A DNA stretch of 64,000 nucleotides, from NCBI GenBank assembly GCA_041649175.1, contig JBAZNR010000001.1, positions 588,956-652,955 of the forward strand, written 5' to 3'. Below the pieces are notes generated by a model that ran no database searches, was not told where the DNA came from, and was given only the letters and a program-made list of their open reading frames with translations. Below are positions 268 through 15,686 of this stretch, piece after piece (within the stretch, counting starts at the first letter, position 1; every line of letters starts with the position of its first letter). Made by a program: the position numbers and the translations under genes. This DNA is from Candidatus Omnitrophota bacterium (GTDB lineage: Bacteria > Omnitrophota > Gorgyraeia > Zapsychrales > JBAZNR01).

Positions 268-1101
268 ATGAAATTCTTTCGATCAAGATCAGGGATCATT
301 TTTACCGGCCTTTTGGCTTTTGTTTTTCTTTTTTGCTCCGATACATTCGCTGCGAAAAAAAAGTCTAAGGCCCACCGTGTTACGGCTCGTTCCGCTATCT
401 TCTCTAATAGTACCAAAGGCGTACGGCTTTACGGAAAAAATGTCGAAACCACAGTTGTTCCGGCCAGCACAACCAAGGTAATGACGGCCTTGCTTGTTTT
501 GGAGAACTTGTCTTTAGATAGCGTTGTAACTGTTTCTTCTAGAGCAACTTACGTTCAGCCAAGTAAAATATATTTAAAACCCGGAGAACGTTACAAAGTT
601 TCCGAATTGCTTTATGCCATGTTGATCAGCTCGGCTAATGATGCTAGCGTTGTTTTAGCGGAGGCGGTTTCTGGATCAGAATGGGAATTTGTCAAAAAAA
701 TGAACGCGCGGGCCAAGCAATTAGGAGCTAAGAAAACAAAATTTATGAACAGCCATGGGTTGCCCACCAAGCAATCGCAATACACGACCGCCTATGATAT
801 GTATTTGATGTTCCGCGAAGCGTTGAAATATCCTTTTTTCAAAAAGGCCCTCAGCTATAAGTACAAAACCATTGTTTCCCAAAGCGGTAAGAAGACTTAT
901 CTTAAAAACCATAATAAGCTTTTATGGAAAAGCTGGGGGCAAAATATTTACGGGAAAACAGGCTATACCAGAAAAGCACGCTCGTGCTTTGTCGGTTATT
1001 TGGATGGCAAGAAAGATACGATGATCATCGCGGTTTTCGGCTGTGATCAGCGTTGGGATGATATCAAGACAATTGTAGCCCGTTATATCCATTCGCGTTA
1101 A
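268..1101 (+). CDS. D-alanyl-D-alanine carboxypeptidase (peptidase S11, PBP5/6-like)
   Basis: Signal peptide; SxxK active-site motif ASTTK; overall S11 architecture. Confidence 0.8.
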   Translation: MKFFRSRSGIIFTGLLAFVFLFCSDTFAAKKKSKAHRVTARSAIFSNSTKGVRLYGKNVETTVVPASTTKVMTALLVLENLSLDSVVTVSSRATYVQPSKIYLKPGERYKVSELLYAMLISSANDASVVLAEAVSGSEWEFVKKMNARAKQLGAKKTKFMNSHGLPTKQSQYTTAYDMYLMFREALKYPFFKKALSYKYKTIVSQSGKKTYLKNHNKLLWKSWGQNIYGKTGYTRKARSCFVGYLDGKKDTMIIAVFGCDQRWDDIKTIVARYIHSR

Positions 1102-1163
1102 AGACACTAGAGGCCCTTTCGCTGCTTAAATAAATTTGAAAAACACCCGACTTTACGCTACAA

Positions 1164-1403
1164 TTGCAGAACAAGCGTGTCCCTTTTATGGATAATATTA
1201 AGAAAGCCTTAACCTTTTTGTTCGCGATCATCGGTCTTTTGATCTTCTATACGGTGATGATGGTTAAGCTTGAGGTAGCCGCCCAGCAAACACAGGCGCA
1301 TATCCAACAATTATCCGCTGACTTGAACTGGGAAGATTTCTTATATCAAAACGCTGTTTATACCGTGGCTGAAGAAAGAACAAGATCAAAGGTAAATCCG
1401 TAA
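1164..1403 (+). CDS. small membrane-anchored hypothetical protein
   Basis: ORF with a single N-terminal TM helix; no recognisable domain. Confidence 0.3.
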   Translation: MQNKRVPFMDNIKKALTFLFAIIGLLIFYTVMMVKLEVAAQQTQAHIQQLSADLNWEDFLYQNAVYTVAEERTRSKVNP

Positions 1404-1421
1404 GTATAAGGACGATGGATC

Positions 1422-1784
1422 ATGTACGACCGACGAAGAAATCCTCGCTTTGAATGTCCGCCGCAGCACGAATATGTTGTCGAGCTCGCGGATCACAGCG
1501 CTGTCGCGCAGTTATCCAATTTGAGCCGCGACGGAATAGCGTTTGTTTCCTCCAAGGATTTTCACCCCGAAGAGATCTATCAATTTTTGCTAAAAGGGCC
1601 GCACGTTCATTCGGCCGTTGCCTGTGAAGCTCGCATTTCCTGGACGAAGGCTTTGCATCCGTCCCGTTTTTCTTATGGGGCCAAGATCACCAAAATAGAC
1701 CCTCAGGCTAAAACAGATATTTTGGATTTTTTGTATCAGGACTGGAAAGAAAAGATCACCGCGAGTTTTAAACCGTCGCTTTAA
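1422..1784 (+). CDS. PilZ domain protein (putative c-di-GMP receptor)
   Basis: N-terminal RRRNPRF (RxxxR) followed by a DGIAFVS (D.S..G-like) motif. Confidence 0.55.
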   Translation: MYDRRRNPRFECPPQHEYVVELADHSAVAQLSNLSRDGIAFVSSKDFHPEEIYQFLLKGPHVHSAVACEARISWTKALHPSRFSYGAKITKIDPQAKTDILDFLYQDWKEKITASFKPSL

Positions 1785-1802
1785 AAACAGAAGGAGCCTT
1801 GT

Positions 1803-2591
1803 ATGCCAAGATGGGTTTATACGTTAAGCATTTCGTTTTCGATCATTCTTCTGATGTTCGCCGCGTCCGAAACTTTAAGAAGGCAGGATACTTTAGAAAA
1901 AAAGATCGCGGGACTAGAATTAAAGCTGGAATCGCATGAGTCGAAAATAACAAGCGATTTGACTGCTGTCCAGATGGCCCTACGCAGTCTGCCGTCGGCT
2001 TTGGGCCGTATGGCCGGCAACAATCCTCCTGCGCCTCAAGCTCCCAACCCGGAAGACGTTAATAAAGTCTACAAAATTGATGTTGGAAGCTCTCCGGTCT
2101 TGGGAAATAAGAATGCTAAAGTCACCATTGTCGAGTTTTCGGATTTTCAATGCCCATATTCACAGAGATTTCATCCCGTTGTTGCGGAAGTCTTGAAGGC
2201 TTATCCGAACGACGTGAATTATATATTGAAGAATTATCCTCTAGGATTTCATCCCAATGCCAAACCGGCGGCTAAGGCGTCACTTGCGGCCGGGGAACAA
2301 GGAAAATATTGGGAAATGGTCGAAGCCTTGTTTGCCAACGGCAAAGAATTGAGTGAAGAGAAATATAAAGAATTAGCCAAGCAAATTGGGATCAATGTTG
2401 ATCAATTTTCCAAGGATCTCAAAGAAAAAGATGCTCAATGGGAAAAAATGATCGCCGCGGATTTAAAAACTGTGGAAGAAGTTGACGCCCGCGGAACGCC
2501 GACATTTTATTTGAACGGCAAAAAAACCCGCGCGCGTGATCTAGCGGGATGGAAAGCGGAAATAGATGCGGTTTTAAAGGAAAAGAAGTAA
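1803..2591 (+). CDS. DsbA-like thioredoxin-fold protein, membrane anchored (CxxS variant active site)
   Basis: N-terminal TM segment. The DsbA-family region shows FSDFQCPYSQRF where the canonical CPxC reads CPYS. Confidence 0.55.
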   Translation: MPRWVYTLSISFSIILLMFAASETLRRQDTLEKKIAGLELKLESHESKITSDLTAVQMALRSLPSALGRMAGNNPPAPQAPNPEDVNKVYKIDVGSSPVLGNKNAKVTIVEFSDFQCPYSQRFHPVVAEVLKAYPNDVNYILKNYPLGFHPNAKPAAKASLAAGEQGKYWEMVEALFANGKELSEEKYKELAKQIGINVDQFSKDLKEKDAQWEKMIAADLKTVEEVDARGTPTFYLNGKKTRARDLAGWKAEIDAVLKEKK

Positions 2592-2595
2592 ATTA

Positions 2596-2715
2596 ATGAT
2601 CAATGTCAAATTCCAAATGACAAATAAATTCCCAATTTCAAATGTTTAATGACGGATTGGGAATTAGCCATTTGATATTTATTTGACATTTGTCATTAGG
2701 AATTTGTTATTTAAC
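2596..2715. repeat. palindromic intergenic repeat element, copy A
   Basis: aatgatcaa...caaattccaaatgacaaataaat...atttatttgacatttgtcatt...ggaattt internal inverted repeats. It is related to the element at 4845-4975. Confidence 0.45.
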
Positions 2716-2739
2716 GCACAATTCATAAGGAGATACACA

Positions 2740-3003
2740 ATGACACGTCTAGGCGGTTTATCGACAATCAATTACAAAGAAACCAAGGGAATGAAGGTTT
2801 CCGGCGGGCAAGTGGTTAAAGCCGGAACAATTCTTACCCGTGAAGGCCATCGTTGGCAGCCCGGCATCAATGTGGATGGGCGCACCAGTTTAACGGCTAG
2901 CTGCGACGGAGAAGTTTATTTTACCCGTAAACGCGGCAGTTATCGAAGAGCTGTAACATTGATCAATATCAAACCCAAAGCACTTAAAGAAGCCAAGAAA
3001 TAA
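2740..3003 (+). CDS. rpmA: ribosomal protein L27-like (divergent N-terminus)
   Basis: The core GGQVVKAGTILTREGHRWQPGINVDGRTSLTASCDGEVYF aligns to the L27 core. AGGAG RBS before the ATG at 2740. The conserved AHKK...NGRDS N-terminus is not conserved and no rplU is adjacent. Confidence 0.5.
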   Translation: MTRLGGLSTINYKETKGMKVSGGQVVKAGTILTREGHRWQPGINVDGRTSLTASCDGEVYFTRKRGSYRRAVTLINIKPKALKEAKK

Positions 3004-3005
3004 TT

Positions 3006-4844
3006 ATGTGCGGTATCGTCGGCTATGTCGGCCACAAAAATGCCGCCCCTATTCTTTTAGACGGCCTTAAAAAGTTAGAATACCGCGGCTATGACTCCAG
3101 CGGTATCGCGGTCATCGCGCGCGATAAAAGTAAGATCGCTGTGCGAAAAAATCAGGGCAAGATCAAAGCCTTAGAAGAGCTTATTCAAAGCAAGCATCTG
3201 CCCGAAAGCTTTTTAGGAATCTGCCACACCCGTTGGGCCACTCACGGAAAACCTAACCGCACAAACGCTCACCCTCACTGTGATTGTTCCGGAAAAATCG
3301 TTGTCGTTCATAACGGTATTATCGAAAATTATCAGGAATTAAAGAAATTCCTTCAGGAAAAAAACCATACCTTTTCCTCCGAAACCGACACGGAAGTCAT
3401 TGCCCACCTCATTGAACATTATTACAAACAGAAAAAAGATTTTCTATCGGCGGTACGCCGGGCGATCGTCCAACTTAAAGGGTCTTTTGCCTTAGGGATC
3501 CTTTGTTCGGATGATCCCGATCGCTTGATCGCGGCGCGGGTGGGTTCTCCTTTGATCGTTGGCATCGGCAAGGGTGAGAATTTTATCGCATCGGATGTTC
3601 CGGCCATTTTGGATAAAACTAAAAAAGTTATCTATTTATCCGACGGGCATATGGCGGTTTTAACCAAAGGTAAAGTGGAAGTATCGACCTTTTCCGGGAA
3701 AAAAGTTCCAACCAAGATCCACACCGTGGCGTTTAAAGTGGGCGCGGCGCAAAGAGAAGGTTTTGCCCATTTTATGCTCAAAGAGATCCACGAGCAACCG
3801 GCTGTTTTGTCACAAATTTTATCTTCAAGGCTAAAGGGAAACCGCGTTTACCTTGACGGGATTTCATTAAACGATCGTCAGTTACGCGAATTTCAAAATG
3901 TGGTGGTGGTGGCCTGCGGAACGGCGTATCACGCCGGAATGGTCGGAAAATATTTGATCGAACAATTTGCCCAAATTCCTGTTTGGACCGATCTTTCCAG
4001 CGAATTTCGTTACCGATTTCCTTTGGTCAGCAAGAAAACTTTAGTTGTGGCGATCAGCCAATCCGGAGAAACAGCCGATACGCTGGCGGCGGTCAAGGAA
4101 GCGAAGCTAAAGGGAGCAAAAGTTATTTCTATTTGTAACGCGGTTGGTTCGTCTTTAGCGCGCGAATCCGACGGAATTTTGTATACGCATGCCGGCCCGG
4201 AAATCGGCGTTGCCTCCACGAAAGCTTATACGGCGCAATTGATGATGTTGTATTTATTAGCGCTCAAACTTGCCACAGCACGCGGGAAAATAAGATCGAA
4301 AGAATTAAATGAGATCGTCAAAGAATTAAAACATATTCCGGCGCTTTTGAAAGATATTTTAAATAATAAAGACAAGATAGCCCAGGTTGCCCGCGCCAAT
4401 TCGCACTTTGGATGTTTTTTATTCTTAGGGCGCAACATCAATTTCCCGACGGCGCTGGAAGGCGCTTTAAAATTAAAAGAGATCTCTTATATTCCGGCGG
4501 AAGGTTACGCGGCCGGAGAAATGAAGCACGGGCCCATCGCTTTAATTGATGAATACCGCGCGGTTGTCTGTATCGCGCCGCAGTCGGATATTTACGATAA
4601 GATGATCTCCAATATGCAGGAAATTAAAGCGCGCCGAGGAAAAATTATCGCCATTGCCACATCCGGCGATGAAACGATCAAGCATCACGCCAGCCACGTT
4701 GTCTATATTCCTAAAACACACAAGATCTTAACGCCGCTTTTGGCGGTCGTACCTTTACAGCTTATTGCGTATTATATCGCCGTTAAACGCGGGTGCGATG
4801 TAGACCAGCCGCGGAATTTAGCGAAATCTGTAACGGTTGAATAA
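3006..4844 (+). CDS. glmS: glutamine--fructose-6-phosphate aminotransferase (isomerising)
   Basis: MCGIVGY N-terminal nucleophile, two SIS domains, C-terminal ...SVTVE. Confidence 0.95.
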   Translation: MCGIVGYVGHKNAAPILLDGLKKLEYRGYDSSGIAVIARDKSKIAVRKNQGKIKALEELIQSKHLPESFLGICHTRWATHGKPNRTNAHPHCDCSGKIVVVHNGIIENYQELKKFLQEKNHTFSSETDTEVIAHLIEHYYKQKKDFLSAVRRAIVQLKGSFALGILCSDDPDRLIAARVGSPLIVGIGKGENFIASDVPAILDKTKKVIYLSDGHMAVLTKGKVEVSTFSGKKVPTKIHTVAFKVGAAQREGFAHFMLKEIHEQPAVLSQILSSRLKGNRVYLDGISLNDRQLREFQNVVVVACGTAYHAGMVGKYLIEQFAQIPVWTDLSSEFRYRFPLVSKKTLVVAISQSGETADTLAAVKEAKLKGAKVISICNAVGSSLARESDGILYTHAGPEIGVASTKAYTAQLMMLYLLALKLATARGKIRSKELNEIVKELKHIPALLKDILNNKDKIAQVARANSHFGCFLFLGRNINFPTALEGALKLKEISYIPAEGYAAGEMKHGPIALIDEYRAVVCIAPQSDIYDKMISNMQEIKARRGKIIAIATSGDETIKHHASHVVYIPKTHKILTPLLAVVPLQLIAYYIAVKRGCDVDQPRNLAKSVTVE

Positions 4845-5766: not shown

Positions 5767-7788
5767 TTGGCGGAGAAATTCCCGCCAACGAAGAAAGGCT
5801 GTCCAATGGCTGCAAAAATACCACTCATGAAACGGGTTAAACACCTGGTCATCGGCCAGGCGAGAAATCCAACCGACCGCGGGATCTTCCATAATATAAC
5901 GCTCATTGCCTTATTTGCCTGGGTTGGTTTGGGCGCTGACGGGCTATCGTCTTCTTGTTACGGCCCGGAACAAACCTTTTTAGCCTTAGGCAAATACCCG
6001 TCTTTAAGCCTTTTTGTGGCCTTGGCCATGGCCGCCACGATTTTCGTGATCAGTGAAAGCTATTCGCAAATTATTGAGCTATTTCCCAGCGGCGGCGGAG
6101 GTTATTTGGTCGCCAGCAAACTTCTTTCGCCCACCACCGGTATGATCTCAGGATGCGCTCTTTTGATCGATTATGTTTTAACCATCGCCATTTCCATCGC
6201 CAGCAGTGCCGATGCCTTATTCAGCTTTTTTCCCGTCGCTTATCAACCGCTTAAGATCTATTTCGCCATCGGTGGTGTTTTACTTCTTATGATCATGAAT
6301 ATGCGCGGCGTTAAAGAGTCTGTCATCTCTTTGGTCCCGGTTTTTATGATCTTCATTGTGACCCATTTTATCGCCATCGTTTACGCCCTCGTTGTCCATC
6401 TGGCCGGTTTCACTCAAGTTTTTCATTCCGTCAGTACCGATATGTCAACGGCGCATAGCGAAATGGGCTTATGGGGAATTATCTTTCTTATCTTACGTTC
6501 TTACGGGATGGGCGCCGGAACTTATACCGGGATCGAGGCTGTCAGTAACGGTCTTCCTATTTTAAGAGAACCCAGAGTGCAAACAGCCAAAAAAACCATG
6601 CGTTATATGGCTCTTTCTTTGGCGTTTACCGCCACGGGGCTTATGATCGCGTATTTATTATTTAATGTGTCCGCTCAGCCCGGCAAAACGCTTAACGCGG
6701 TTTTATTTGAATCGATCGTCCGCGAATGGCCCGGCGGCGGTTATGGATTTGTCCTCACTGCTTTGTTTTCGGAAGCCGCTTTGCTTTTTGTGGCGGCGCA
6801 AGCCGGTTTTGTGGACGGGCCTCGGGTTTTGGCCAACATGGCCGTTGACCGATGGTTTCCTAATCGTTTTGCCAGTTTAAGTGACCGTTTGGTCACCCAA
6901 AACGGCGTTATGTTGATGGGTGTTGCGGCGGCGGCCACCATCATATTTACCCAGGGCTTGGTCCAGATGTTGGTCGTTTTATACAGCATCAATGTATTTA
7001 TCACATTTTGTTTATCACAATTAGGGATGGTGCGTCATTGGTGGCAGGTTCGCCGGGAAGAGCGAAAATGGAAAAAAAGAATCACCATCAACGGCGCGGG
7101 GCTTGTTTTAACGTCATTCATCCTTTTATCTATGGTCATTTTAAAATTCCATGAAGGCGGATGGATCACTTTGGTTTTAACCGGAACTATTGTTTTACTG
7201 GCAATCTTTATCAAACGCCATTATTATCTGACCGGAAAATTGTTACGACGCTTAAACGATCTGGTCCAGACGGTTTCCGCCGAGCTTAAAGATGACGCTA
7301 AGGTGCCGAAAGTCCATCAAGAGCCAGACCATCAAGCGAAAACGGCTGTTTTATTGGTGAACGGTTTTAACGGGCTTGGCTTGCATACGCTATTTGGCGT
7401 TATGCGCCTTTTCGGAAGTTCTTTTAAGAATTTTGTTTTCGTGGAAGTCGGCGTTATTGATGCCGGAAATTTTAAAGGGGCCCAGGAAGTGGACCGCTTA
7501 AAAGAGCACGCGCAAAGTGATATCAAGCGTTACATCACCTTTATGCGCCAAAACGGTTTTTACGCCGAAGGGATTTCGCGCGTCGGCATTGATGTCATTG
7601 ACGAAGTAGAAAAGGCCTCTCAGGATATTATCACGCGTTTTCCTAACGTGGTTTTCTTCGGCGGGCAATTGGTTTTCCCGGAAGAAACATTCTTCACCCG
7701 TGTTTTGCATAACCACACGGTCTTTGCTCTTCAAAGAAAGTTTTATTATACCGGAACACCGTTTGTGCTTTTGCCCATTCGTGTTTGA
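5767..7788 (+). CDS. APC-superfamily amino acid/polyamine permease with about 200 aa cytoplasmic C-terminal extension
   Basis: 12-TM core with APC signature region around GLGADGLSSSCYGPE. Start codon uncertain (5767 or 5806). Confidence 0.7.
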   Translation: MAEKFPPTKKGCPMAAKIPLMKRVKHLVIGQARNPTDRGIFHNITLIALFAWVGLGADGLSSSCYGPEQTFLALGKYPSLSLFVALAMAATIFVISESYSQIIELFPSGGGGYLVASKLLSPTTGMISGCALLIDYVLTIAISIASSADALFSFFPVAYQPLKIYFAIGGVLLLMIMNMRGVKESVISLVPVFMIFIVTHFIAIVYALVVHLAGFTQVFHSVSTDMSTAHSEMGLWGIIFLILRSYGMGAGTYTGIEAVSNGLPILREPRVQTAKKTMRYMALSLAFTATGLMIAYLLFNVSAQPGKTLNAVLFESIVREWPGGGYGFVLTALFSEAALLFVAAQAGFVDGPRVLANMAVDRWFPNRFASLSDRLVTQNGVMLMGVAAAATIIFTQGLVQMLVVLYSINVFITFCLSQLGMVRHWWQVRREERKWKKRITINGAGLVLTSFILLSMVILKFHEGGWITLVLTGTIVLLAIFIKRHYYLTGKLLRRLNDLVQTVSAELKDDAKVPKVHQEPDHQAKTAVLLVNGFNGLGLHTLFGVMRLFGSSFKNFVFVEVGVIDAGNFKGAQEVDRLKEHAQSDIKRYITFMRQNGFYAEGISRVGIDVIDEVEKASQDIITRFPNVVFFGGQLVFPEETFFTRVLHNHTVFALQRKFYYTGTPFVLLPIRV

Positions 7789-7825
7789 TAAAAAGATTTT
7801 TCAGATTTTTTAGAAAGGATCAGTT

Positions 7826-8482
7826 ATGTTCAAGAATTTTTCCATATGGGACGCTTTAAGAGTCGGCGGCCCGGTCATGTATTTTTTGATCTGTTGTTCC
7901 GTCGTGTCAATTGCCATCATCGCCGAAAGAATTCTTTTTTATTCTCTGCGCTCCAAAACCTCCAGGGTCAATTTTATGCGTCTTATTCGAAAAGAGCTGG
8001 AAGAAAATGATATCAAAAAAGCGCAAACCACCTGTCATAAAACCTTAACGCCTTTTTCCGAAGTGGTGGCGGCCGGATTAAACGCTTCGCACGGCGACGA
8101 GAAGGAAATAGCCGATGCCATGGAGCGTCAGATCATTATCGAAGTTAATATTTTAGAGCGGCGCACCGCTATTGTCGGCACCATCGGAAGCACGGCGGTT
8201 TATATCGGGCTTTTAGGTACTGTTTGGGGCATTATTGAAGCCTTTCGCGATATCGCTCAAATGGGCTCCGGTGGGATTAATGTGGTCATTCACGGCATTG
8301 CCGCGGCTTTGGTGTGCACCGCGGCCGGGCTTTTTGTGGCCATTCCGGCGGTGGCGGCTTACAATTATTTTGTCAAAAGAGTCAACGGTTTTGTGATGGA
8401 TATGGAGCTATGCGCTTCGGAAGTTGCCGGGCTTCTTAAAGGACATAAAAAAACCAGAGTCAAAAATGAGAAGACCGCATAA
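7826..8482 (+). CDS. MotA/TolQ/ExbB proton-channel family protein
   Basis: 3-TM topology; conserved LGTVWGIIEAF and AALVCTAAGL segments. Confidence 0.8.
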   Translation: MFKNFSIWDALRVGGPVMYFLICCSVVSIAIIAERILFYSLRSKTSRVNFMRLIRKELEENDIKKAQTTCHKTLTPFSEVVAAGLNASHGDEKEIADAMERQIIIEVNILERRTAIVGTIGSTAVYIGLLGTVWGIIEAFRDIAQMGSGGINVVIHGIAAALVCTAAGLFVAIPAVAAYNYFVKRVNGFVMDMELCASEVAGLLKGHKKTRVKNEKTA

Positions 8483-8891
8483 AACCCAAAGCTTGATGGC
8501 GGAAATTAACATCACGCCGTTTACGGATGTTATCTTGGTTTTGCTGATCATCTTTATGATCACCACTCCCTTAATTGCCCAGCGCGGCATTGAAGTTAAA
8601 CTCCCCGAAGCCTCTTCCAAAAGTACCTTAGAAGATCCCAAACAAGCGTATATCACCATTACCGCCGAGGGCGTTGTTTATTTAGAAGAAAAAACGCTTA
8701 ACACCAAAGAATTAAAACAAAAGATCGATGAACTTTTGCGTCGTGACCGCAATTTAAAAGTGGTGGTGGCGGCGGATCAGTCTTGCCGGTTCCGGGATGT
8801 GGTCAGGGTCATTGATATCGTCAAAGAATCCGGTGTAAAAAGCCTCAATATCGCTACCAGAACCAACGAACGCGTTTCACCCGTAAAGTAA
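8466..8891 (+). CDS. ExbD/TolR biopolymer transport protein
   Basis: MAEINITPFTDVILVLLIIFMITTPL N-terminal TM typical of ExbD/TolR. Overlaps the upstream gene (operon). Start chosen at the internal Met. Confidence 0.8.
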   Translation: MRRPHKTQSLMAEINITPFTDVILVLLIIFMITTPLIAQRGIEVKLPEASSKSTLEDPKQAYITITAEGVVYLEEKTLNTKELKQKIDELLRRDRNLKVVVAADQSCRFRDVVRVIDIVKESGVKSLNIATRTNERVSPVK

Positions 8892-8910
8892 GCAAAATAA
8901 CTTTCCTTTC

Positions 8911-9165
8911 ATGGCTAAAATAAAATTAGATTTACACGATATTTTTAACCGCGGCCGATCCATTGACGAGGAGCTAAACCGTGTTATTCGTGAAGCGATA
9001 GATAAGAAAATCGCTTTGGTAGAGATTATTCCGGGCAAGGGAAGCGGGCAATTAAAAAAACACGTGCTAAAGTTTTTAGACCAATCGTCCATCAAACAGC
9101 TCTATCACCGAGTGGAGAAAGACGATAAAAACTTCGGGAGAATATTTGTTCACTTTAGATTTTAA
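8911..9165 (+). CDS. Smr domain protein (small MutS-related)
   Basis: LDLHD...IIPGKGSG matches the Smr LDLHG / HGKG pattern. Confidence 0.55.
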   Translation: MAKIKLDLHDIFNRGRSIDEELNRVIREAIDKKIALVEIIPGKGSGQLKKHVLKFLDQSSIKQLYHRVEKDDKNFGRIFVHFRF

Positions 9166-9997
9166 AAAGATTTCCTGCGCGGCCATGATCCTCATGGCCG
9201 CGCTATGCTTTTCCCCCCAAAGCTCTTTTTCCAAAGAACTTTCCGCCGCCGATATCGTGAAAGATTATTCGCCTTCTATTGTCACCGTCGCCGCCACCAG
9301 CCCCAAGGGATTAAATTTCGGAAGCGGATTTATCGTCAATTCTAACGGGCTTATTGTTACCAATTTCCATATCTTGCAAACGGCGGTTAAGATCGGTATT
9401 AAACTTTCTAACGGCAAAACCTATGACCACGCGAAACTGCTTCGTTTCGACACTCCCAAAGATATCGCGGTTTTAAAAATTGATGCCAAGAATTTAAATC
9501 CGGTCATCTTAGGCGACAGCGATAAGATCGTGGTAGGCGAAGGAGTTGTCACAATAGGAAATCCCCTAGGATTAGAGGCGAGTGTTTCTGATGGGATCAT
9601 TAGCTCCCGGCGTTCGGCAAAAAAAGGGCTGAAGCTGCTTCAAATAACAACGCCTATTTCTTCGGGTTCAAGCGGCGGGCCGCTTTTTAATTTAAAAGGG
9701 GAAGTCGTTGGCATTACAACTGCCACCAATAAAAAAGGGCAAAATATCAACTTCGCCGTTCCCATTAATTACGCCAAGCCGATCATCTTTTTGCATCAAA
9801 AAGGCGAAAGTATTTCAGGTGTAAAAAATGACCCCAACTCAAAAGAAACCTTTCTTTATACGATAAAGCCCAAAGACACCCTCTTTTCTTTGGCTAAAAA
9901 GTTTAACACTTCAGTACAAACGCTGATGGAGTTAAACAGCCTATCCAATCCCAGAATCCTCTCGGGACAAAAAATCAAAGTTCCTTCCAGAAAATAG
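9146..9997 (+). CDS. secreted trypsin-like serine protease (S1C/HtrA-like) with C-terminal LysM domain
   Basis: Signal peptide; catalytic TNFH and SSGSSGGPLF (GDSGGP variant); C-terminal LysM YTIKPKDTLFSLAKKFNTSVQTLMELN. Confidence 0.75.
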   Translation: MFTLDFKKISCAAMILMAALCFSPQSSFSKELSAADIVKDYSPSIVTVAATSPKGLNFGSGFIVNSNGLIVTNFHILQTAVKIGIKLSNGKTYDHAKLLRFDTPKDIAVLKIDAKNLNPVILGDSDKIVVGEGVVTIGNPLGLEASVSDGIISSRRSAKKGLKLLQITTPISSGSSGGPLFNLKGEVVGITTATNKKGQNINFAVPINYAKPIIFLHQKGESISGVKNDPNSKETFLYTIKPKDTLFSLAKKFNTSVQTLMELNSLSNPRILSGQKIKVPSRK

Positions 9998-10018
9998 CTT
10001 TTCAGGTTAGATTTTATA

Positions 10019-10046
10019 TTGACAATTCTCCTTCGAGCCATATACT
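10019..10046 (+). promoter_or_regulatory. sigma70-like promoter TTGACA-16-TATACT upstream of the AT-rich island
   Basis: Near-consensus -35/-10. The sequence closely resembles the pyrR promoter at 11741-11769. Confidence 0.4.
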
Positions 10047-10130
10047 AACGCTCATGGGTGGTCTTTGAGGGGTGTTTTCACGGAATTCTGTTTTCGGGAT
10101 TTAAAATTTACTAGCTGAAGGAGTTTAGCT

Positions 10131-10838
10131 ATGCAATTGATTTCATCTGCTAATAGTATTCGGCTCCGAAATTATGTTTTCCCAATCGGATCTGTAGACA
10201 AAAAAGATGACAAGAATAGTAATGTGTATGGTACAGCAAGTTATTTAGGGGGAAAATATTTTATTACAGCAGGGCATGTATTGAAAAATGCAAGTAGCAA
10301 GAAAATAATTGGCATAGGCTTTATGGGGGACGATGAGTGCAAATATTTTAATATTTCAAAGTATGAAATATTAGAGGATATTGATGTAGGTATTATTGAG
10401 CTCAATTTAGAGCAAATACCTGCAGCAAAGTTAATTTGGGATTCCGATCTATCTTTAATGTTAAGCGATGTTCACACCTTTGGTTTCCCGCATGGACAAT
10501 CTATAAAGGATGATGGGGAAGTTTATAATTCGTTAAGAGCATTAAAAGGTCACGTTGTTTCGATTGATAAGAATTATACGTATGAGCTATCTTTTTTCTG
10601 TCCTAAGGGCTTATCCGGAGCACCTCTCTTAAATAAAAAAGGAAATATTACAGGCATGATTATTGGGAATACAGGGGTAGAAATGAACGTATGCCAAGAA
10701 ATAGAAAAAGATAAGAAGGAAATATATTCGAAAGACATTGTTTATTTCTTAGGTAAAGCAATATGTGCATGCAAAATATTAGATATAAAGCCCAAGTTGC
10801 TTAATATGACCATAGGGGAGTTTATTAAAAAATATTAA
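10131..10838 (+). CDS. trypsin-like serine peptidase (AT-rich island gene 1)
   Basis: TAGHVL (His) and GLSGAPLL (GxSGxP) motifs; GAAGGAG RBS. Codon usage is strongly AT-biased relative to neighbours. Confidence 0.5.
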   Translation: MQLISSANSIRLRNYVFPIGSVDKKDDKNSNVYGTASYLGGKYFITAGHVLKNASSKKIIGIGFMGDDECKYFNISKYEILEDIDVGIIELNLEQIPAAKLIWDSDLSLMLSDVHTFGFPHGQSIKDDGEVYNSLRALKGHVVSIDKNYTYELSFFCPKGLSGAPLLNKKGNITGMIIGNTGVEMNVCQEIEKDKKEIYSKDIVYFLGKAICACKILDIKPKLLNMTIGEFIKKY

Positions 10839-10871
10839 AATTTGTCGGGCACTTAAAGAAAAGGGATATAT

Positions 10872-11696
10872 ATGTCTTCAACGGGGAAAATCTTACAATC
10901 AGAGGCTGACAACACCAAGGAGCTTGTAAAGTCTATAAGTTTTTTAGCTGGTGAAGTTTCAGTATTTAAAGAAGCACTAAGCAAAAATGTGTCTAATTTA
11001 GATGAGACGCTCAAGAAAACAAATCAAAGTACAGAAGAATTACGAGATGCCGTTGTGAGTTCGACTGATAAAATTATTACTTCAGGTGAGAAATTAGCTG
11101 TCGCGCAAAATTTCCATTCAAAAACAATGCTTTTTCTAACTTTTGCGTTAGTTGTTGTGGGCATATTCCAAATATTGGTTATGAATGGGCAATCAAATAT
11201 TATGAAATCACAATCAGAAATTATGAAACATCAGGCTGATCATGCTAAGAAAATAACTGAAATTGAGTTACGTCCAATGCTTGAAATTCAACCGTATGCA
11301 GCTACCTACTCAGAAAATAATCTAGTTTTTCATTATTTTCTTTCTAATTCTGGAAAATCAAATATTTTGAATATAAAGCGCTGCCATACTTTTGAGCTAA
11401 TTAATAGAATTACAAATGAGGAGTCAAGTATTAAACCAGAGACATGTGTTTCTAATGAACATGACTTGACCTTGTTGCATGACAGGTCTAGCTTAATTCA
11501 TGATGATATGATCGGAGATTACAAGCTAGATGAATTAGATCCTCATAAGTATTATCGAATTAATTTAAAAGTTAGTTATGCAACTGAAGAATTTCTAGGC
11601 AAAAAGTGTGTTGCCTCAAGAAAGTTTGACTTACTACCTATTGATAATAAGTTTGTAATCCGACCGTTAGCATATTTAGATACAGTGTGTGAGTAA
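10872..11696 (+). CDS. hypothetical protein, N-terminal coiled coil plus single TM (AT-rich island gene 2)
   Basis: ORF with a hydrophobic segment MLFLTFALVVVGIFQILV; no recognisable domain. Confidence 0.3.
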   Translation: MSSTGKILQSEADNTKELVKSISFLAGEVSVFKEALSKNVSNLDETLKKTNQSTEELRDAVVSSTDKIITSGEKLAVAQNFHSKTMLFLTFALVVVGIFQILVMNGQSNIMKSQSEIMKHQADHAKKITEIELRPMLEIQPYAATYSENNLVFHYFLSNSGKSNILNIKRCHTFELINRITNEESSIKPETCVSNEHDLTLLHDRSSLIHDDMIGDYKLDELDPHKYYRINLKVSYATEEFLGKKCVASRKFDLLPIDNKFVIRPLAYLDTVCE

Positions 11697-11740
11697 GAAT
11701 CATATGTGAATTCTGGGGACACGTACCTAAGTTTTCCTTC

Positions 11741-11769
11741 TTGACACATTCTCCTCTCAGTGTTATATT
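11741..11769 (+). promoter_or_regulatory. pyrR promoter TTGACA-17-TATATT
   Basis: Consensus -35, 17-nt spacer, near-consensus -10, located about 130 nt upstream of pyrR. Confidence 0.55.
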
Positions 11770-11790
11770 TTGGTCAATAATCAACCTTTA

Positions 11791-11816
11791 AGCTTAGCCC
11801 TGTGAGGCTGGCAAGG
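11791..11816 (+). promoter_or_regulatory. PyrR-binding loop (anti-antiterminator) in pyr leader RNA
   Basis: AGCUUAGCCCUGUGAGGCUGGCAAGG matches the conserved PyrR box (..CC.G.GAGGCU.GCAAGG) of Bacillus-type pyr attenuators. Confidence 0.6.
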
Positions 11817-11853
11817 AAAACAAAATGGAAGTTTATATTACGAAATTTATTAA

Positions 11854-11890
11854 GCGCGTTTTTTCGAGAGAAAAAACGCGCTTTTTCTGT
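11854..11890 (+). terminator. pyr leader attenuator terminator
   Basis: Perfect 12-bp stem GCGCGTTTTTTC-GAGA-GAAAAAACGCGC followed by TTTTTCTGT, immediately upstream of pyrR. Confidence 0.7.
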
Positions 11891-11898
11891 GAGCGCTT

Positions 11899-12444
11899 AT
11901 GACCAACTCCACTCAAATCATGACCTCTGATGAAATCCGCCGAGCCGTCACCCGGCTTTCCCACGAGATCTTAGAGAAAAATAAGGGAATTGAAGACCTT
12001 TGTTTGATCGGGATTAGAACGAGAGGGGCGGTTTTGGCGCAGCGTATCAAAACCGCCATTCAAGAAATTGAACACGTCGATGTTCCTCTTGGAATTCTCG
12101 ACATCACTCTTTACCGCGATGATTTAACGCTGGTCGGCGCTAAACCTTTGGTGCGCGAAACCGAAATAGATTTTGACCTAAACGATAAAAAGGTTGTTTT
12201 AGTAGATGATGTTTTGTATACCGGACGCACCATCAGGGCGGCCTTGGATGCAATCGCCGATTTTGGCCGTCCGGCCAGCATTCAATTGGCTGTTTTAATA
12301 GACCGCGGGCATAGAGAACTTCCTATCCGCGCCGATTATGTGGGCAAAAACATCCCCACATCCAAAACACAAATGGTGGAAGTGCGCTTAACCGAAACCG
12401 ACGAAAAAGACGAGGTATCAATTGTCGAAGGTAAAAACAGATAA
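11899..12444 (+). CDS. pyrR: bifunctional pyr operon regulator / uracil phosphoribosyltransferase
   Basis: PRPP-binding [19 protein letters not shown] and overall PyrR similarity. Confidence 0.95.
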
Positions 12445-13375
12445 TCCTCTCTGGACCCGTAAAGATCTTTTGGGATTGCAGGAACTTTCCTCCCAAGAGA
12501 TAGAGCTTATTTTAAATACCGCCGCCTCATTCAAAGAAGTTTCTACCCGCGAAATAAAAAAGGTTCCGGCCCTTCGCGGCAAAACCGTGGTCAATCTATT
12601 CTATGAACCGTCCACCCGCACCCGCGTTTCCTTTGAAGTGGCCGCCAAACGCCTTTCCGCTGACGTCATCAATATATCGGTAGAAACATCCAGTGTCAAA
12701 AAAGGCGAAACGCTTTTAGATACCGGCGCTAATATCCAAGCCCTTAAAGCCGATATTATCGTGATGCGCCATAGCGCGTCCGGAGCGGCTTTAATGCTTG
12801 CCCGTCATCTTAAATCAAGTATTGTCAATGCCGGTGACGGTTGGCACGAACATCCCACCCAAGCGCTTTTGGATATGTTCACCTTAAAAGAAAAATTAGG
12901 CCGTATCAAAGGGCTTAATGTGGCTATCGTTGGCGATATCGCTCATTCGCGCGTGGCGCGTTCTAACATTTGGGGTTTAACAAAATTAGGAGCGAATGTA
13001 ACGGTGTGTGCGCCCGCAATGCTGATTCCGGCGGAAATTGAGAAAATGGGCGTAAAAGTCACATCCGATATTGATGAAGCTTTAAAAAACGCGGATGCGG
13101 TCAATGTGCTTCGTATGCAATTCGAGCGTGACGCACAAAACGCCTTTCCTAAACAGCTGGAATATTTTAAGAATTTTGGCATCACCAAAGAACGCCTTTT
13201 AAAGGTGAAAAAAGATATTATTGTGATGCATCCCGGACCATTAAATCGCGGCATAGAAATGGAAAGCGATATTGCCGATGGGAAAAACTCGGTCATCTTA
13301 GAACAGGTCACCAACGGCATCGCCGTTCGTATGGCGGTTTTATATCTGGTATCGCAAGGACAACAGCAAACATGA
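12422..13375 (+). CDS. pyrB: aspartate carbamoyltransferase catalytic subunit
   Basis: STRTRVSFE and HPTQALLD signatures. Apparent TTG start overlapping the pyrR end. Confidence 0.95.
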
Positions 13376-14646
13376 AAATTCTTATCAAAAATGGAATTGT
13401 GGTCGATCCGGCGAGTAAACTAAACGAAATAAGCGACGTTTTGATCAAAGACGGCAAGATTAGCAAAGTCGCTAAGAGCATTTCTGACGCGGCCGATAAA
13501 ACGATCGACGCCAAAGGAAAAATTGTTGCTCCGGGTTTAGTCGATATGCATGTGCATTTGCGCGAACCCGGCCGTGAAGATAAAGAAACCGTTGAAACCG
13601 GAACGCGCGCGGCCGCTTTCGGCGGCGTGACATCGGTTTTATGTATGCCCAATACAACGCCGGCCTTGGATTCGGTGGCAACCGTTCGTTTACTTAAAGA
13701 TTCCATCAAAAAAACCGCTTCAGTGAATGTTTTTATCTGCGGCGCTATTACCGTTGGGCGTCAAGGTAAAAAAGTGGTTAATATCGCCGCTTTAAAAGAT
13801 GAAGGTGTTTTAGCTTTAAGCGATGACGGCAGTGAGGTTGAAGATGACGCGATTTTTCTTGAGGCCTGCAAAAAAGCGAAGAAAGAAAATATCTTGATCG
13901 ACTGCCACTCGGAAGACCGAAAACTTTCCAACAATGGCGTGATGAACTTAGGATATATGTCCACCATTTTGGGACTGCGCGGGATATCGCGCGAGTCGGA
14001 ATATAAATGCATTGAGCGCGATATTACTATTGCCGCTAAGGCGGACGCGCGCATTCATATTTCTCATGTCAGTTGCCGCGAGTCGGTTGAGGTGATCGCG
14101 CGTTTTAAGAAAAAAGGTGTAAAGGTAAGCGCGGAAACCGCGCCGCATTACTTTTGGCTTTGCGATGAAGATTTACTCGATTATGATACGCATAAAAAGA
14201 TGAACCCACCGCTGCGCACCAAAGATGATAGAGAAGCGATGAAACAGGGTTTGCGTGATGGAACATTGGAAGTTATCGCCACCGATCACGCGCCGCATAC
14301 ACAAAATGAAAAGGAAGTGGAGTTTGACCATGCGGCCTTTGGGATTTTGGGCTTGCAAACAAGCTTGGCGCTTTCAATAGGTGCTTTGGTTGAAACAAAG
14401 ATCTTGGATTGGCCCGGGCTTATTGCCAAAATGAGCCTTAATCCGGCGCGCATTATGCAGGTAGATAAGGGAACTTTAAAGGCGGGCGCGGACGCTGACG
14501 TGGTCATCATTGATCCAAATAAAGAGTGGATTTTTCAAAAAGAAGATATTCTTTCCAAATCCAAGAATTCACCTTTTGTCGGATGGAAATTAAAGGGGAA
14601 GGTGGAAACGACGATTTGCGGTGGAAAAGTGGTTTATCAAGATTAG
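13372..14646 (+). CDS. pyrC: dihydroorotase
   Basis: DMHVHLREPG metal-binding motif; amidohydrolase fold length. Confidence 0.9.
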   Translation: MKILIKNGIVVDPASKLNEISDVLIKDGKISKVAKSISDAADKTIDAKGKIVAPGLVDMHVHLREPGREDKETVETGTRAAAFGGVTSVLCMPNTTPALDSVATVRLLKDSIKKTASVNVFICGAITVGRQGKKVVNIAALKDEGVLALSDDGSEVEDDAIFLEACKKAKKENILIDCHSEDRKLSNNGVMNLGYMSTILGLRGISRESEYKCIERDITIAAKADARIHISHVSCRESVEVIARFKKKGVKVSAETAPHYFWLCDEDLLDYDTHKKMNPPLRTKDDREAMKQGLRDGTLEVIATDHAPHTQNEKEVEFDHAAFGILGLQTSLALSIGALVETKILDWPGLIAKMSLNPARIMQVDKGTLKAGADADVVIIDPNKEWIFQKEDILSKSKNSPFVGWKLKGKVETTICGGKVVYQD

Positions 14647-14718
14647 GCCCCCATAGCTCAATGGATAGAGTACTAGCCTCCGGCGCTGGGTGTACAGGTT
14701 CGACTCCTGTTGGGGGCG
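14647..14718 (+). tRNA. tRNA-Arg (anticodon CCG)
   Basis: Cloverleaf folded by hand: acceptor GCCCCCA/TGGGGGC, D-arm GCTC...GAGT, anticodon stem CTAGC/GCTGG with loop CTCCGGC, T-arm ACAGG-TTCGACT-CCTGT, discriminator G. No encoded CCA. Confidence 0.85.
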
Positions 14719-14745
14719 CTCTTTGAGATGCAACAGCCTCTTGAA
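14717..14745. repeat. direct repeat DR1 (GCGCTCTTTGAGATGCAACAGCCTCTTGAA) abutting the tRNA-Arg 3' end
   Basis: Repeated near-identically at 14886-14915. Confidence 0.7.
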
Positions 14746-14767
14746 AATCCCGAGACGCAGTCGAGGG

Positions 14768-14799
14768 ACGGCGCTGTTGGTGCAGGCTCGACTCCTGCC
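14768..14799 (+). pseudogene. partial duplicate of tRNA-Arg 3' half (anticodon-stem/T-arm fragment)
   Basis: ACGGCGCTGTTGGTGCAGGCTCGACTCCTGCC aligns to CCGGCGCTGGGTGTACAGGTTCGACTCCTGTT of the intact tRNA. Confidence 0.5.
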
Positions 14800-14816
14800 G
14801 AACAATTGTAGCGTGG

Positions 14817-14888
14817 AAGTAGTAGGTCCCCTGCGGGGACCGGGCGCGTATATTCGAAGTAGTAGGCCCCCTTTGGGGGCTAGGCGCG
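14817..14888. repeat. two tandem hairpin repeat units GAAGTAGTAGG-(GC palindrome)-GGCGCG
   Basis: Units at 14817-14848 and 14857-14888, each with an internal GC-rich palindrome (TCCCCTGCGGGGA and CCCCCTTTGGGGG). Confidence 0.6.
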
Positions 14889-14915
14889 TTCTTTGAGATG
14901 CAACAGCCTCTTGAA
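14886..14915. repeat. direct repeat DR2 (GCGTTCTTTGAGATGCAACAGCCTCTTGAA)
   Basis: Second copy of DR1, about 170 bp downstream. Confidence 0.7.
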
Positions 14916-14946
14916 CAGGCTTGGGGACAGACATACGCAGAGATTA

Positions 14947-14979
14947 GGGTCAGGCCCCACCTGCGGTGGGGCCTGACCC
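14947..14979. terminator. GC-rich hairpin GGGTCAGGCCCCACC-TGC-GGTGGGGCCTGACCC
   Basis: Perfect 15-bp stem. No obvious U-run, so it is a structural element or terminator of uncertain function. Confidence 0.4.
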
Positions 14980-15221
14980 TAAGTCAGAGACGGGAAAAAG
15001 TGGAAACCACAAAATGTAGGGCTTTCCACAGAATATACACAATATGCATAAATTGTTAATAATGGAGTAATTGACCCATAACATAGTCTAATTTTGTATA
15101 ATAGTGGATTAAATATACATAATTAATCAATAAATATAGTATATTGTGCATAATTAATACATATCAAAAAACAGCAATTTTCCACAGATTTTTGGCAAAA
15201 TCAATCAAATAGGAGCTCACT

Positions 15222-15686
15222 TTGAGCCATCAAAAAATAACCATATCCGTGATCGGCGGACATGACTGCAACAAAGAAGTGGAGCAATTATCCCATAAAA
15301 TTGGCAAAATAATTGCTAAAATGGGTTCTGTCTTGGTTTGTGGCGGTTTAGATGGGGTTATGCGGGAGGCGGCAAAAGGAGCTAAAAGCTGTGGCGGGCT
15401 GACGATTGGGATACTGCCGGGTAAGAATAAATCTGACGCCAACCCCTTTATCGATATTGCCTTGCCAACTTCTATCGGGTATTCCCGTAATGTCATCGTA
15501 GCTTGCTCGGCGGATATCATCATTGCCTTGCCCGGAAGCCACGGAACCCGAAGCGAAATATCTTACGGCCTTGTTTATGGGCGTCCGGTCATTGATCTGG
15601 GCGGCTGGAATATTAAAGGAATGATCAAGGTTAAAGACCTCAAAGAAGCAGAACAAGTAATCAAGAAGCTAATTAAGGGTTCTTAG
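15222..15686 (+). CDS. LOG-family / TIGR00725-like Rossmann-fold protein (SLOG)
   Basis: VIGGHDC...VCGGLDGVMREAAKGA...GILPG pattern of the LOG/TIGR00725 family. TTG start with an AGGAG RBS 6 nt upstream. Confidence 0.65.
   Translation: MSHQKITISVIGGHDCNKEVEQLSHKIGKIIAKMGSVLVCGGLDGVMREAAKGAKSCGGLTIGILPGKNKSDANPFIDIALPTSIGYSRNVIVACSADIIIALPGSHGTRSEISYGLVYGRPVIDLGGWNIKGMIKVKDLKEAEQVIKKLIKGS

Follow-up and report, generated by a model that had tools for sequence, protein, structure and literature searches.

A foreign-looking protease and membrane-protein islet in front of the pyr operon of a Candidatus Omnitrophota bacterium: a candidate conflict module

What is a pair of very AT-rich genes, one for a trypsin-like protease and one for a membrane protein, doing among the housekeeping genes of a Candidatus Omnitrophota bacterium, how did it arrive there, and do its two products act together? 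The pair was analysed within a 64-kb stretch of one contig (the window), in whose coordinates all positions are given; identifiers such as L004 and P0219 denote loci and proteins, respectively, retrieved in this study. The segment from about 10090 to 11730 is in all likelihood a horizontally acquired islet, with the gene of an HtrA-like LysM-domain protease on its left and the native pyr promoter and its attenuator on its right. It is very probable that this islet is an acquired two-gene operon encoding the two protein architectures described below. The overall explanation, in which this acquired operon acts as a conflict or defence module, is assigned a probability of about 0.4, and the locus is a lead, not a demonstrated system. 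The islet comprises the following features.

10117-10123, plus strand: Shine-Dalgarno sequence GAAGGAG, 7 nucleotides (nt) before the ATG of open reading frame 1 (ORF1), read from the sequence
10131-10838, plus strand: ORF1, a trypsin-fold serine protease of 235 amino acids (aa) with His49/Asp85/Ser162 (GLSGAP), by Pfam Trypsin_2
10872-11696, plus strand: ORF2, a 274-aa single-pass membrane protein, separated from ORF1 by 33 nt and preceded by the ribosome-binding site AAGGGA
10884-11126, plus strand: helix/coiled coil of ORF2, residues 5-85 (AlphaFold2 model)
11127-11195, plus strand: transmembrane (TM) helix of ORF2, residues ~86-108 (hydropathy)
11277-11690, plus strand: immunoglobulin-like (Ig-like) beta-sandwich of ORF2, residues 136-273 (AlphaFold2 model)

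The case for acquisition is compositional. The block 10131-11696 has a G+C content (GC) of 33.0%, against 42.8% for the window, and no other 1566-nt stretch in the 64 kb has a value this low (z = -3.5). An earlier annotation made from the sequence alone, hereafter the sequence-only reading, had described this block as far more AT-rich than its surroundings; the GC scan and the codon statistics agree, the composition of the window not being uniform. Both genes deviate alike in whole-gene GC (33.1% for ORF1 and 33.0% for ORF2), and none of the 41 other ORFs of 200 aa or more, which range from 0.354 to 0.521, has a GC at third codon positions (GC3) as low as theirs (0.297 and 0.262), so that the bias is present at the codon level, beyond amino-acid composition. 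The drop is limited to the two coding sequences and the 33-nt spacer, and the flanks at 10047-10130 and 11697-11740 have a GC of about 41%. The locus therefore shows the compositional deviation from the host by which genomic islands are recognised, with GC of 33 versus 43% and GC3 of 0.26-0.30 versus at least 0.35. The layout is that of an operon, with one putative, near-consensus promoter at 10019 and two Shine-Dalgarno-led genes 33 nt apart; this single promoter-like site, the short gap, the lack of a terminator between the genes and their equal aberrant composition together argue for one transcription unit. Three further ORFs of low GC occur in the window, at 21515-23125 (minus strand), 24359-25279 (plus strand) and 34899-36635 (plus strand), with GC of 0.36-0.38 and GC3 of 0.36-0.39. 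They may be further acquired genes, with a composition less extreme than that of the islet.

Which proteins does the islet encode? ORF1 matches Pfam Trypsin_2 (PF13365) at 31.8 bits (cut-off 27.6) over profile positions 1-144 of 144, and this curated-profile score, together with the His-Asp-Ser order and a GxSGxP motif, identifies it as a PA-clan serine peptidase. Since the triad of H49 (TAGH), D85 and S162 (GLSGAP) is invariant in an alignment of 28 sequences (ORF1 and 27 relatives), ORF1 should be an active protease. Neither a signal peptide nor a hydrophobic segment is present (maximum Kyte-Doolittle value 1.19), so that ORF1 is predicted to be cytoplasmic, unlike the resident HtrA-LysM protease. 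The family comprises 129 homologues, all at most 40% identical to ORF1, whose members are about 235-270 aa long and consist of the protease domain only. The closest relative of solved structure, a remote one, is the Jep protease of S. aureus (E = 3e-5).

ORF2 is identical to the NCBI entry 'MAG: hypothetical protein WC676_02230 [Candidatus Omnitrophota bacterium]' and is without a family match in Pfam, NCBIfam, PADLOC and PHROGs. It contains one strong hydrophobic helix (Kyte-Doolittle 2.65 in a 19-residue window, residues 86-104). An AlphaFold2 model built from a four-sequence alignment, with a predicted local distance difference test score (pLDDT) of 76.8, places a long helix at residues 5-132 and a beta-sandwich at residues 137-273, for which a structure search returned generic Ig-like sandwiches as top matches. 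The sandwich carries NxG and S-x-I-H-x-D motifs, as well as all four cysteines of the protein, which are invariant in its clade. As modelled, ORF2 is a type-II-like single-pass protein composed of a cytoplasmic helix/coiled coil of about 85 residues, one TM helix and a C-terminal Ig-like sandwich. The sandwich is most likely extracytoplasmic, because the TIR domain and the zinc ribbon found in its relatives must be cytoplasmic and one TM helix lies between; the conserved cysteines fit this orientation too. The sequence-only reading had called the two products a trypsin-fold peptidase and a coiled-coil/TM protein of unassigned family, a description with which Pfam, the AlphaFold2 model and hydropathy agree. 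The likeness of ORF2 to the type-II proteins of the TMEM106B/LEA-2 type is at the level of fold only (8% identity), with dozens of generic Ig-like folds scoring similarly, and warrants no functional inference.

The relatives of ORF2 give the first indication of what such a protein may do. Full-length homologues number three (53, 51 and 39% identity) among 5.8 billion clustered proteins, and a profile search of 1.8 billion representatives revealed a modular protein in which the TM helix and sandwich recur behind other N-terminal regions: a zinc ribbon in P0180 (E 5.6e-53), multi-TM regions in P0190 and P0194, and a TIR_2 domain in P0219. The latter, a metagenomic representative of 487 aa, is a single chain in which an N-terminal region and TIR_2 (hhalign probability 95%, E 3.3e-8) are followed by a lone TM helix and a beta-sandwich of the ORF2 type. 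The C-terminal domain family has about ten representatives (P0180, P0181, P0190, P0194, P0219, P0232 and others), across which NxG and S-x-I-H-x-D are invariant. The family of the N-terminal coiled-coil and TM module is larger (about 80); this module occurs alone in dozens of proteins of 100-150 aa and with a different C-terminal domain in P0183.

The 39% homologue lies at L004 in a cluster (353-4587) that consists of a TIR_2 protein, a 131-aa helical protein, the ORF2 homologue, a 194-aa protein and a Schlafen/AlbA_2-HATPase_c_4 protein. The TIR protein is ThsB-like (PADLOC ThsB1 2e-5, PDC-S66 4e-12) and the Schlafen-type protein matches pAgo-associated PADLOC models; judged by these annotations, L004 is a defence-type neighbourhood around a distant ORF2 homologue. 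Given this TIR gene and the TIR fusion in P0219, the suggestion of the sequence-only reading that the islet resembles an accessory, defence-like module is reasonable. Elsewhere, the homologue differs from its surroundings in GC (29.7 versus 54.6% in L001, 35.2 versus 51.0% in L005), and in L001-L003 the sequence after it contains a 53-aa ORF and the beginning of a gene for a BrnT-like toxin. Elements resembling repetitive extragenic palindromes (REP-like) and common to L001 (1905-2187) and L005 (996-1387 and 1-60) flank the ORF2 homologues there; they comprise a hairpin beginning with CCCTCCCCCTTGYGGGGAG and GGGACAC-N3-AC repeats, some of which are preceded by GAATTC, and the L005 contig ends inside such a repeat.

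The genomic contexts of the ORF1 family are hypervariable. In 86 loci, the 126 flanking ORFs fell into 106 clusters, and the multi-member clusters shown are re-sampled copies of the same contigs. The annotated neighbours include three integrases, two IS110 transposases, AbiEi, AbiZ, a methyltransferase, a TIR protein and a metallo-beta-lactamase (MBL) protein. Among the closest relatives with context, that of L006 adjoins a single-TM protein of 300 aa, and the others lie beside an integrase and DUF5677 (L010), GmrSD_N (L175), a NOV_C/DUF3883 protein (L176), MazE (L177) and, in one case, housekeeping genes (L008). A TM helix is present in 8 of 22 same-strand downstream neighbours within 150 nt, against 2 of 30 upstream ones (Fisher p = 0.012; loci L095-L174 and L006-L011). 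By the ORF2-family hidden Markov model (HMM), these TM neighbours are not homologous to ORF2, and hhalign gave the L006 partner a probability of 0.3%.

How might the two proteins work together? In the proposed mechanism, ORF2 would be a membrane receptor or anchor and its cytoplasmic partner an interchangeable effector, represented by the trypsin-like protease here, by a separate TIR protein in L004 and by a fused TIR domain in P0219. The Ig-like domain of ORF2 would sense an envelope-side cue, and the signal would pass via the TM helix and coiled coil, releasing or activating the ORF1 protease, which would then cleave host or invader targets. Such a conflict module of the phage-defence or abortive-infection type, in which a membrane receptor is combined with an exchangeable cytoplasmic effector, is the favoured working model, with low confidence; it follows Kiwa, SNIPE and Zorya (PMC13434031) and protease-coupled immune modules (10.1101/2025.09.03.673762) in logic but not in sequence. 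An anti-phage role of the pair is a plausible, unproven candidate. Distinctly less probable is the broader proposition that ORF2-type proteins constitute an undescribed class of outside-in conflict sensors, defined by an S-x-I-H-x-D Ig-like domain, one TM helix and swappable effectors (protease, TIR or zinc ribbon). Under this equally improbable extension, the Ig-like domain would be disulfide-stabilised in the ORF2 clade and would sense envelope events, not cytoplasmic nucleic acids; the effectors would be coupled to it either by a cytoplasmic coiled coil or by fusion, and the islet would be a minimal anti-phage system of two genes, a membrane receptor and a protease.

The sequence-only reading had recognised no specific system in this pair, and this still holds, as the locus fits none of the trypsin-MBL, Thoeris, gasdermin and PADLOC systems. 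In the trypsin-MBL module, a trypsin-like protease associated with Hachiman, AVAST or retrons activates an adjacent MBL nuclease (10.1101/2025.09.03.673762). The islet shares with it a Trypsin_2-type protease beside a second protein in an accessory locus, for which a protease-to-partner logic is plausible. It differs in that ORF2 is a TM/Ig-like protein with no MBL match (Pfam E <= 1) and the other neighbour is the HtrA-LysM protease; ORF1 is free-standing, not fused or linked to HamA, Avs, a retron reverse transcriptase or Ago (none in 7000-15000), and there is no helicase or NTPase sensor gene nearby. Membrane-sensor defence systems include Kiwa (KwaA/KwaB), SNIPE and Zorya, in which the tail of ZorAB leads to ZorCD (PMC13434031). 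ORF2 resembles them as a predicted inner-membrane protein with a small periplasmic part, a cytoplasmic extension (its long helix) and a coupled cytoplasmic effector, and the two-gene format is also that of Kiwa. Unlike the Kiwa and Zorya components, ORF2 bears no sequence relation to Kwa or Zor proteins (no PADLOC match); it has a single TM helix where Kiwa, SNIPE and Zorya have multi-TM or stator proteins, the effector is a protease as opposed to a DNA binder or nuclease, and the function of the islet is predicted.

The likeness to Thoeris-type systems concerns relatives of ORF2, in that the L004 homologue follows a ThsB-like TIR protein and the domain is fused to TIR_2 in P0219. In contrast, no TIR gene is present at the window locus and ORF2 is without a SIR2, Macro or SLOG ligand-binding domain; moreover, the TIR and beta domains of P0219 are placed on opposite sides of its single TM helix, an arrangement that makes it less likely that a TIR product is bound in the cytoplasm. 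Neither does ORF2 match any PADLOC model, and it is hence not PDC-M35B. Bacterial gasdermin operons carry trypsin-like proteases (PMC13434031), and their pairing of an activating trypsin- or caspase-like protease with a membrane-targeting protein in a small accessory operon recalls the islet, whose partner is not of the gasdermin fold and has no cleavable inhibitory C-terminus of that type.

These precedents suggest an arrangement of opposite polarity, in which ORF2 would be a latent membrane-disrupting effector activated when ORF1 cuts its cytoplasmic coiled coil, the sensor being the protease itself or encoded elsewhere. Activation of a neighbouring effector by a protease is an established theme (10.1101/2025.09.03.673762; gasdermin operons, PMC13434031), just the N-terminal ~85 residues of ORF2 would be within reach of a cytoplasmic protease, and free coiled-coil and TM modules of 100-150 aa occur in nature. 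However, ORF2 contains just one TM helix, and its fold is not that of a gasdermin, MBL or pore-former protein, with generic Ig-like sandwiches as the best structural matches; its relatives fuse the same domain to TIR, itself an effector, so that the domain resembles a sensor or anchor; and no sensor component is present. This arrangement is considered quite unlikely.

Several observations weigh against the conflict-module explanation as a whole. An ORF2 relative was found in none of the 86 ORF1-family protease loci (ORF2-family HMM) and an ORF1-type protease in none of the loci of the three ORF2 homologues (tblastn with ORF1), so that co-occurrence of the pair in other genomes is not borne out, and the exact combination was found nowhere else. 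The two closer ORF2 homologues are solitary AT-rich genes in GC-rich DNA, the link to TIR comes from one neighbourhood (L004) and one fusion (P0219), and the ORF1 relative P0013 sits among conserved housekeeping genes. The region around the islet lacks defence-island character, its neighbours being ExbBD, Smr and pyrRBC, and neither ORF1 nor ORF2 has matches in IMG/VR, INPHARED phages or PLSDB plasmids; PHROG matches were marginal only, and BFVD fold matches were uninformative. The charges flanking the TM helix of ORF2 are uninformative, its topology being inferred. Similarity of ORF1 to PADLOC models must be discarded as evidence of a defence role. ORF1 does match RT-Protease_XI (retron-XI), PDC-M35A, HamA1 and LmuA at 1e-9 to 1e-5 (trypsin-domain models PDLC02959/02960, PDLC04593, PDLC00169 and PDLC03855), but the resident HtrA-LysM protease and two orthologues match the same models at 1e-20 to 1e-22. 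Because housekeeping HtrA-like proteases score at least ten orders of magnitude better, the matches reflect the fold and not a defence lineage; HMM matches to trypsin-domain models in PADLOC carry a general risk of false positives if the system context is unchecked.

The absence of recurrence is what would be expected if the two genes were unrelated accessory genes drawn from a similar AT-rich pool, ORF1 being a stand-alone protease of the mobilome and ORF2 a stand-alone membrane or surface protein. The neighbours of the protease family are essentially all different, and the ORF2 homologues of L001-L003 and L005 have no adjacent effector gene. This possibility is a serious one, of low probability and on a par with the receptor-effector mechanism. 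The features that make the pair an operon speak against it (equal aberrant composition, 33-nt spacing, one promoter-like site and no terminator between the genes), as do the enrichment of downstream TM proteins beside ORF1-family members and the linkage or fusion of the ORF2 domain to TIR, another classic effector. It is also conceivable that the pair serves ordinary envelope maintenance or regulated proteolysis with no conflict role, its AT-richness stemming from an old transfer or from codon or amino-acid bias. The surrounding genes are housekeeping and envelope-related (ExbBD and the LysM-HtrA protease), and P0013 is embedded in a conserved housekeeping block. Against this stand the very sparse distribution (4 full-length ORF2 proteins in 5.8 billion), the recurrence of the GC drop limited to the coding sequence in unrelated genomes, and the variable, mobilome-rich contexts; an envelope-maintenance role is very improbable. 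In kind, the locus is nothing out of the ordinary, a small accessory islet gained by lateral transfer. The membrane-protein family that it carries is unusual and uncatalogued, and its pairing with the protease was seen in no other locus.

How, then, did the islet come to lie in front of the pyr operon? The elements that bear on this question are the following.

10019-10046, plus strand: P_left, promoter-like site TTGACA-16-TATACT, 11/12 consensus match, containing the block TTGACAATTCTCCT common with the right flank
10083-10090, plus strand: left copy of the 8-nt direct repeat GAATTCTG
11708-11715, plus strand: right copy of the 8-nt direct repeat GAATTCTG
11715-11726, plus strand: 12-mer GGGGACACGTAC, 19 nt after the ORF2 stop, with an identical copy near the L005 homologue
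11741-11769, plus strand: P_right, promoter-like site TTGACA-17-TATATT, TG-extended, 11/12 consensus match
11781-11888, plus strand: PyrR-binding attenuator leader (Rfam RF00515, 58.5 bits against a gathering score of 54)
11852-11883, plus strand: terminator hairpin and U-tract within the PyrR leader (terminator scan)
11899-12444, plus strand: pyrR (NCBIfam PyrR equivalog, 254 bits, cut-off 138)

P_left and P_right are the two best sigma-70 matches of the region (11/12 each); counting both strands, the 64 kb contain only seven such sites, these two included (2.4 +/- 1.5 in block shuffles). P_left is presumed, from its consensus match, to be the promoter of both islet genes. P_right ends 12 nt upstream of the RF00515 leader, which lies ahead of pyrR and, with the terminator and the pyrR gene, makes up a PyrR attenuation system; because it directly precedes this leader with its attenuator hairpin and then the PyrR equivalog, P_right is identified as the native pyr promoter, positioned for transcription to start at the leader. 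The attenuator is the only terminator found by the scan between ORF2 and the pyr genes; with none separating ORF2 from the pyr leader, transcription from P_left may read through into the pyr operon, still gated by the PyrR attenuator. Folding of the islet flanks gave z-scores of -1.68 and +0.84, neither significant, and hence no structured 5' leader or terminator there.

The sequence-only reading had proposed that the flanking sites are imperfect direct repeats. Both strings do occur at these positions and P_right is the pyr promoter, but the real shared block is just TTGACA[C]ATTCTCCT. In an alignment of the 28- and 29-mers, 21 of 29 columns are identical, 11 of which belong to the consensus hexamers; the only informative shared block is ATTCTCCT immediately after the -35 hexamer, with a one-base offset, giving the full core TTGACA[C]ATTCTCCT of 14-15 nt. 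Past ATTCTCCT, 2 of the 9 remaining spacer positions match and the -10 hexamers differ. The significance of this similarity varies with the test, from P ~0.03 down to 4e-4. Aligned locally in an agnostic way, the two flanks scored 11.0 (P = 0.025 versus shuffles), a score reached or exceeded by 5.2% of the remaining pairs of intergenic regions in the window. Spacer identity gave 7e-3 in a binomial test, and the register-specific test (the same 8-mer after the -35 in both sites, given that both are promoters) gave an empirical value of ~4e-4, with 5 of 12,720 promoter-like site pairs.

That two independent strong sigma-70 promoters share eight further bases by chance is an explanation of the flanks, and of the flanks only, that falls a little short of even odds. 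The agnostic alignment, with about 5% of other intergenic pairs doing as well, the divergent spacer remainder and -10 hexamers, and the lack of an integrase, transposase or tRNA target are all in keeping with it; the values of 4e-4 to 7e-3 from the register-specific and binomial tests, and the position of two of the seven 11/12 sites in 64 kb exactly bracketing the foreign block, are not. The similarity of P_left and P_right is probably beyond pure chance, though short. Since identity ends abruptly past the 14-15-nt core, the perfect core with unrelated arms is more in keeping with a crossover core or a junction at microhomology than with divergence after a tandem duplication. Of the further claim that the genes had inserted into, and duplicated, the pyrR promoter region, the location before the pyr promoter stands; insertion into the promoter and its duplication are not established. 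The best-scoring intergenic pair of the null distribution is explained by two c-di-GMP-I riboswitch aptamers (RF01051, gathering score 35), at 45240-45358 (minus strand, 44.3 bits) and 50337-50415 (minus strand, 36 bits), each 5' of a large minus-strand ORF (43132-45105 and 48243-50318, respectively).

The GAATTCTG pair (10083 and 11708) lies closer to the edges of the AT-rich block than the promoter pair does, with GC falling from ~0.45 to ~0.30 just past the left copy; the GAATTCTG repeat alone is not significant. There are thus two candidate boundary pairs, the promoter core and GAATTCTG, neither of which is decisive. The 12-mer GGGGACACGTAC recurs exactly on the upstream side of the L005 homologue, which is followed by four related copies (post-hoc chance estimate ~0.006; BLAST E = 6 in a small database). 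It may be element-borne or REP-like, and it hints, on post-hoc and weak statistics, that the DNA right of the ORF2 gene, as far as about 11730, moved together with it. Entry would probably have occurred by illegitimate or microhomology-guided recombination at or beside the pyr promoter, leaving TTGACA[C]ATTCTCCT at both junctions, and the event would likely have been a Campbell-type entry of circular DNA bringing its own promoter.

Other routes of entry found no counterpart. No integrase, transposase or tRNA/att target is present at the islet, the block consisting of two ORFs only and the nearest tRNA lying at 14647. Apparent inverted terminal repeats (10069-10090 and 11709-11730) were about 64% complementary by hand, anchored only on a GAATTC palindrome and absent from the repeat scan, and are attributed to chance. 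An integron cassette was likewise rejected, with no integrase and no attC-type R'/R'' (GTTRRRY) ends seen by eye around GGGGACAC. No empty site that would prove insertion was found in related genomes, which is a further point against the acquisition scenario: in a protein search, the nearest orthologues of the LysM protease were 45-56% identical, none of the three contigs inspected showed linkage to pyrR, and a species-representative genome scan with the LysM protease gave, among the matches listed, only generic HtrA genes from other phyla.

The resident genes around the islet are all housekeeping genes, judged by the ORF list with Pfam and NCBIfam. Upstream lie a K+ transporter-like ORF, ExbB/ExbD-like ORFs, an Smr-domain protein and the HtrA-LysM protease; downstream, pyrR-pyrB-pyrC (a resident operon with GC of 46-47%) is followed by tRNA-Arg.

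9146-9997, plus strand: HtrA-like secreted serine protease with C-terminal LysM domain (Pfam Trypsin_2 1e-31, LysM 2.5e-16; NCBIfam Do/HtrA)
12422-13375, plus strand: pyrB (ORF list)
13372-14646, plus strand: pyrC (ORF list)

The HtrA-LysM protease gene has a normal composition (GC 43%). Its true start is probably the ATG at 9185 and not the listed TTG at 9146, because the database protein (P0125) has 270 aa. A GC-rich hairpin (GCGCGGCCATG...CATGGCCGCGC, ~9177-9203) overlaps the ATG 9185 start, directly 3' of the Smr gene. At the other end, in the region 14647-15230, tRNA-Arg(ccg) at 14647 precedes two direct copies of a repeat of about 27 nt, TCTTTGAGATGCAACAGCCTCTTGAA, at ~14720 and ~14889, beyond which come a tRNA 3'-end-like fragment, three GC-rich hairpins and a very AT-rich stretch of 230 nt. 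This region, without a match in Rfam, looks like the att-type scars of an element at a tRNA.

What the islet means depends on whether its genes cooperate. If they are independent, it would amount to no more than a short piece of laterally acquired DNA. If they act as a pair, the membrane-sensing defence systems, which are few (Kiwa, Zorya, SNIPE), would gain a very small and experimentally tractable example. In that case a protease and TIR would also be interchangeable effectors of a new receptor scaffold, in Omnitrophota, a phylum with almost no characterised immunity. The ORF2 family, with its two separable modules absent from Pfam, NCBIfam, PADLOC and PHROGs, merits definition as a family.

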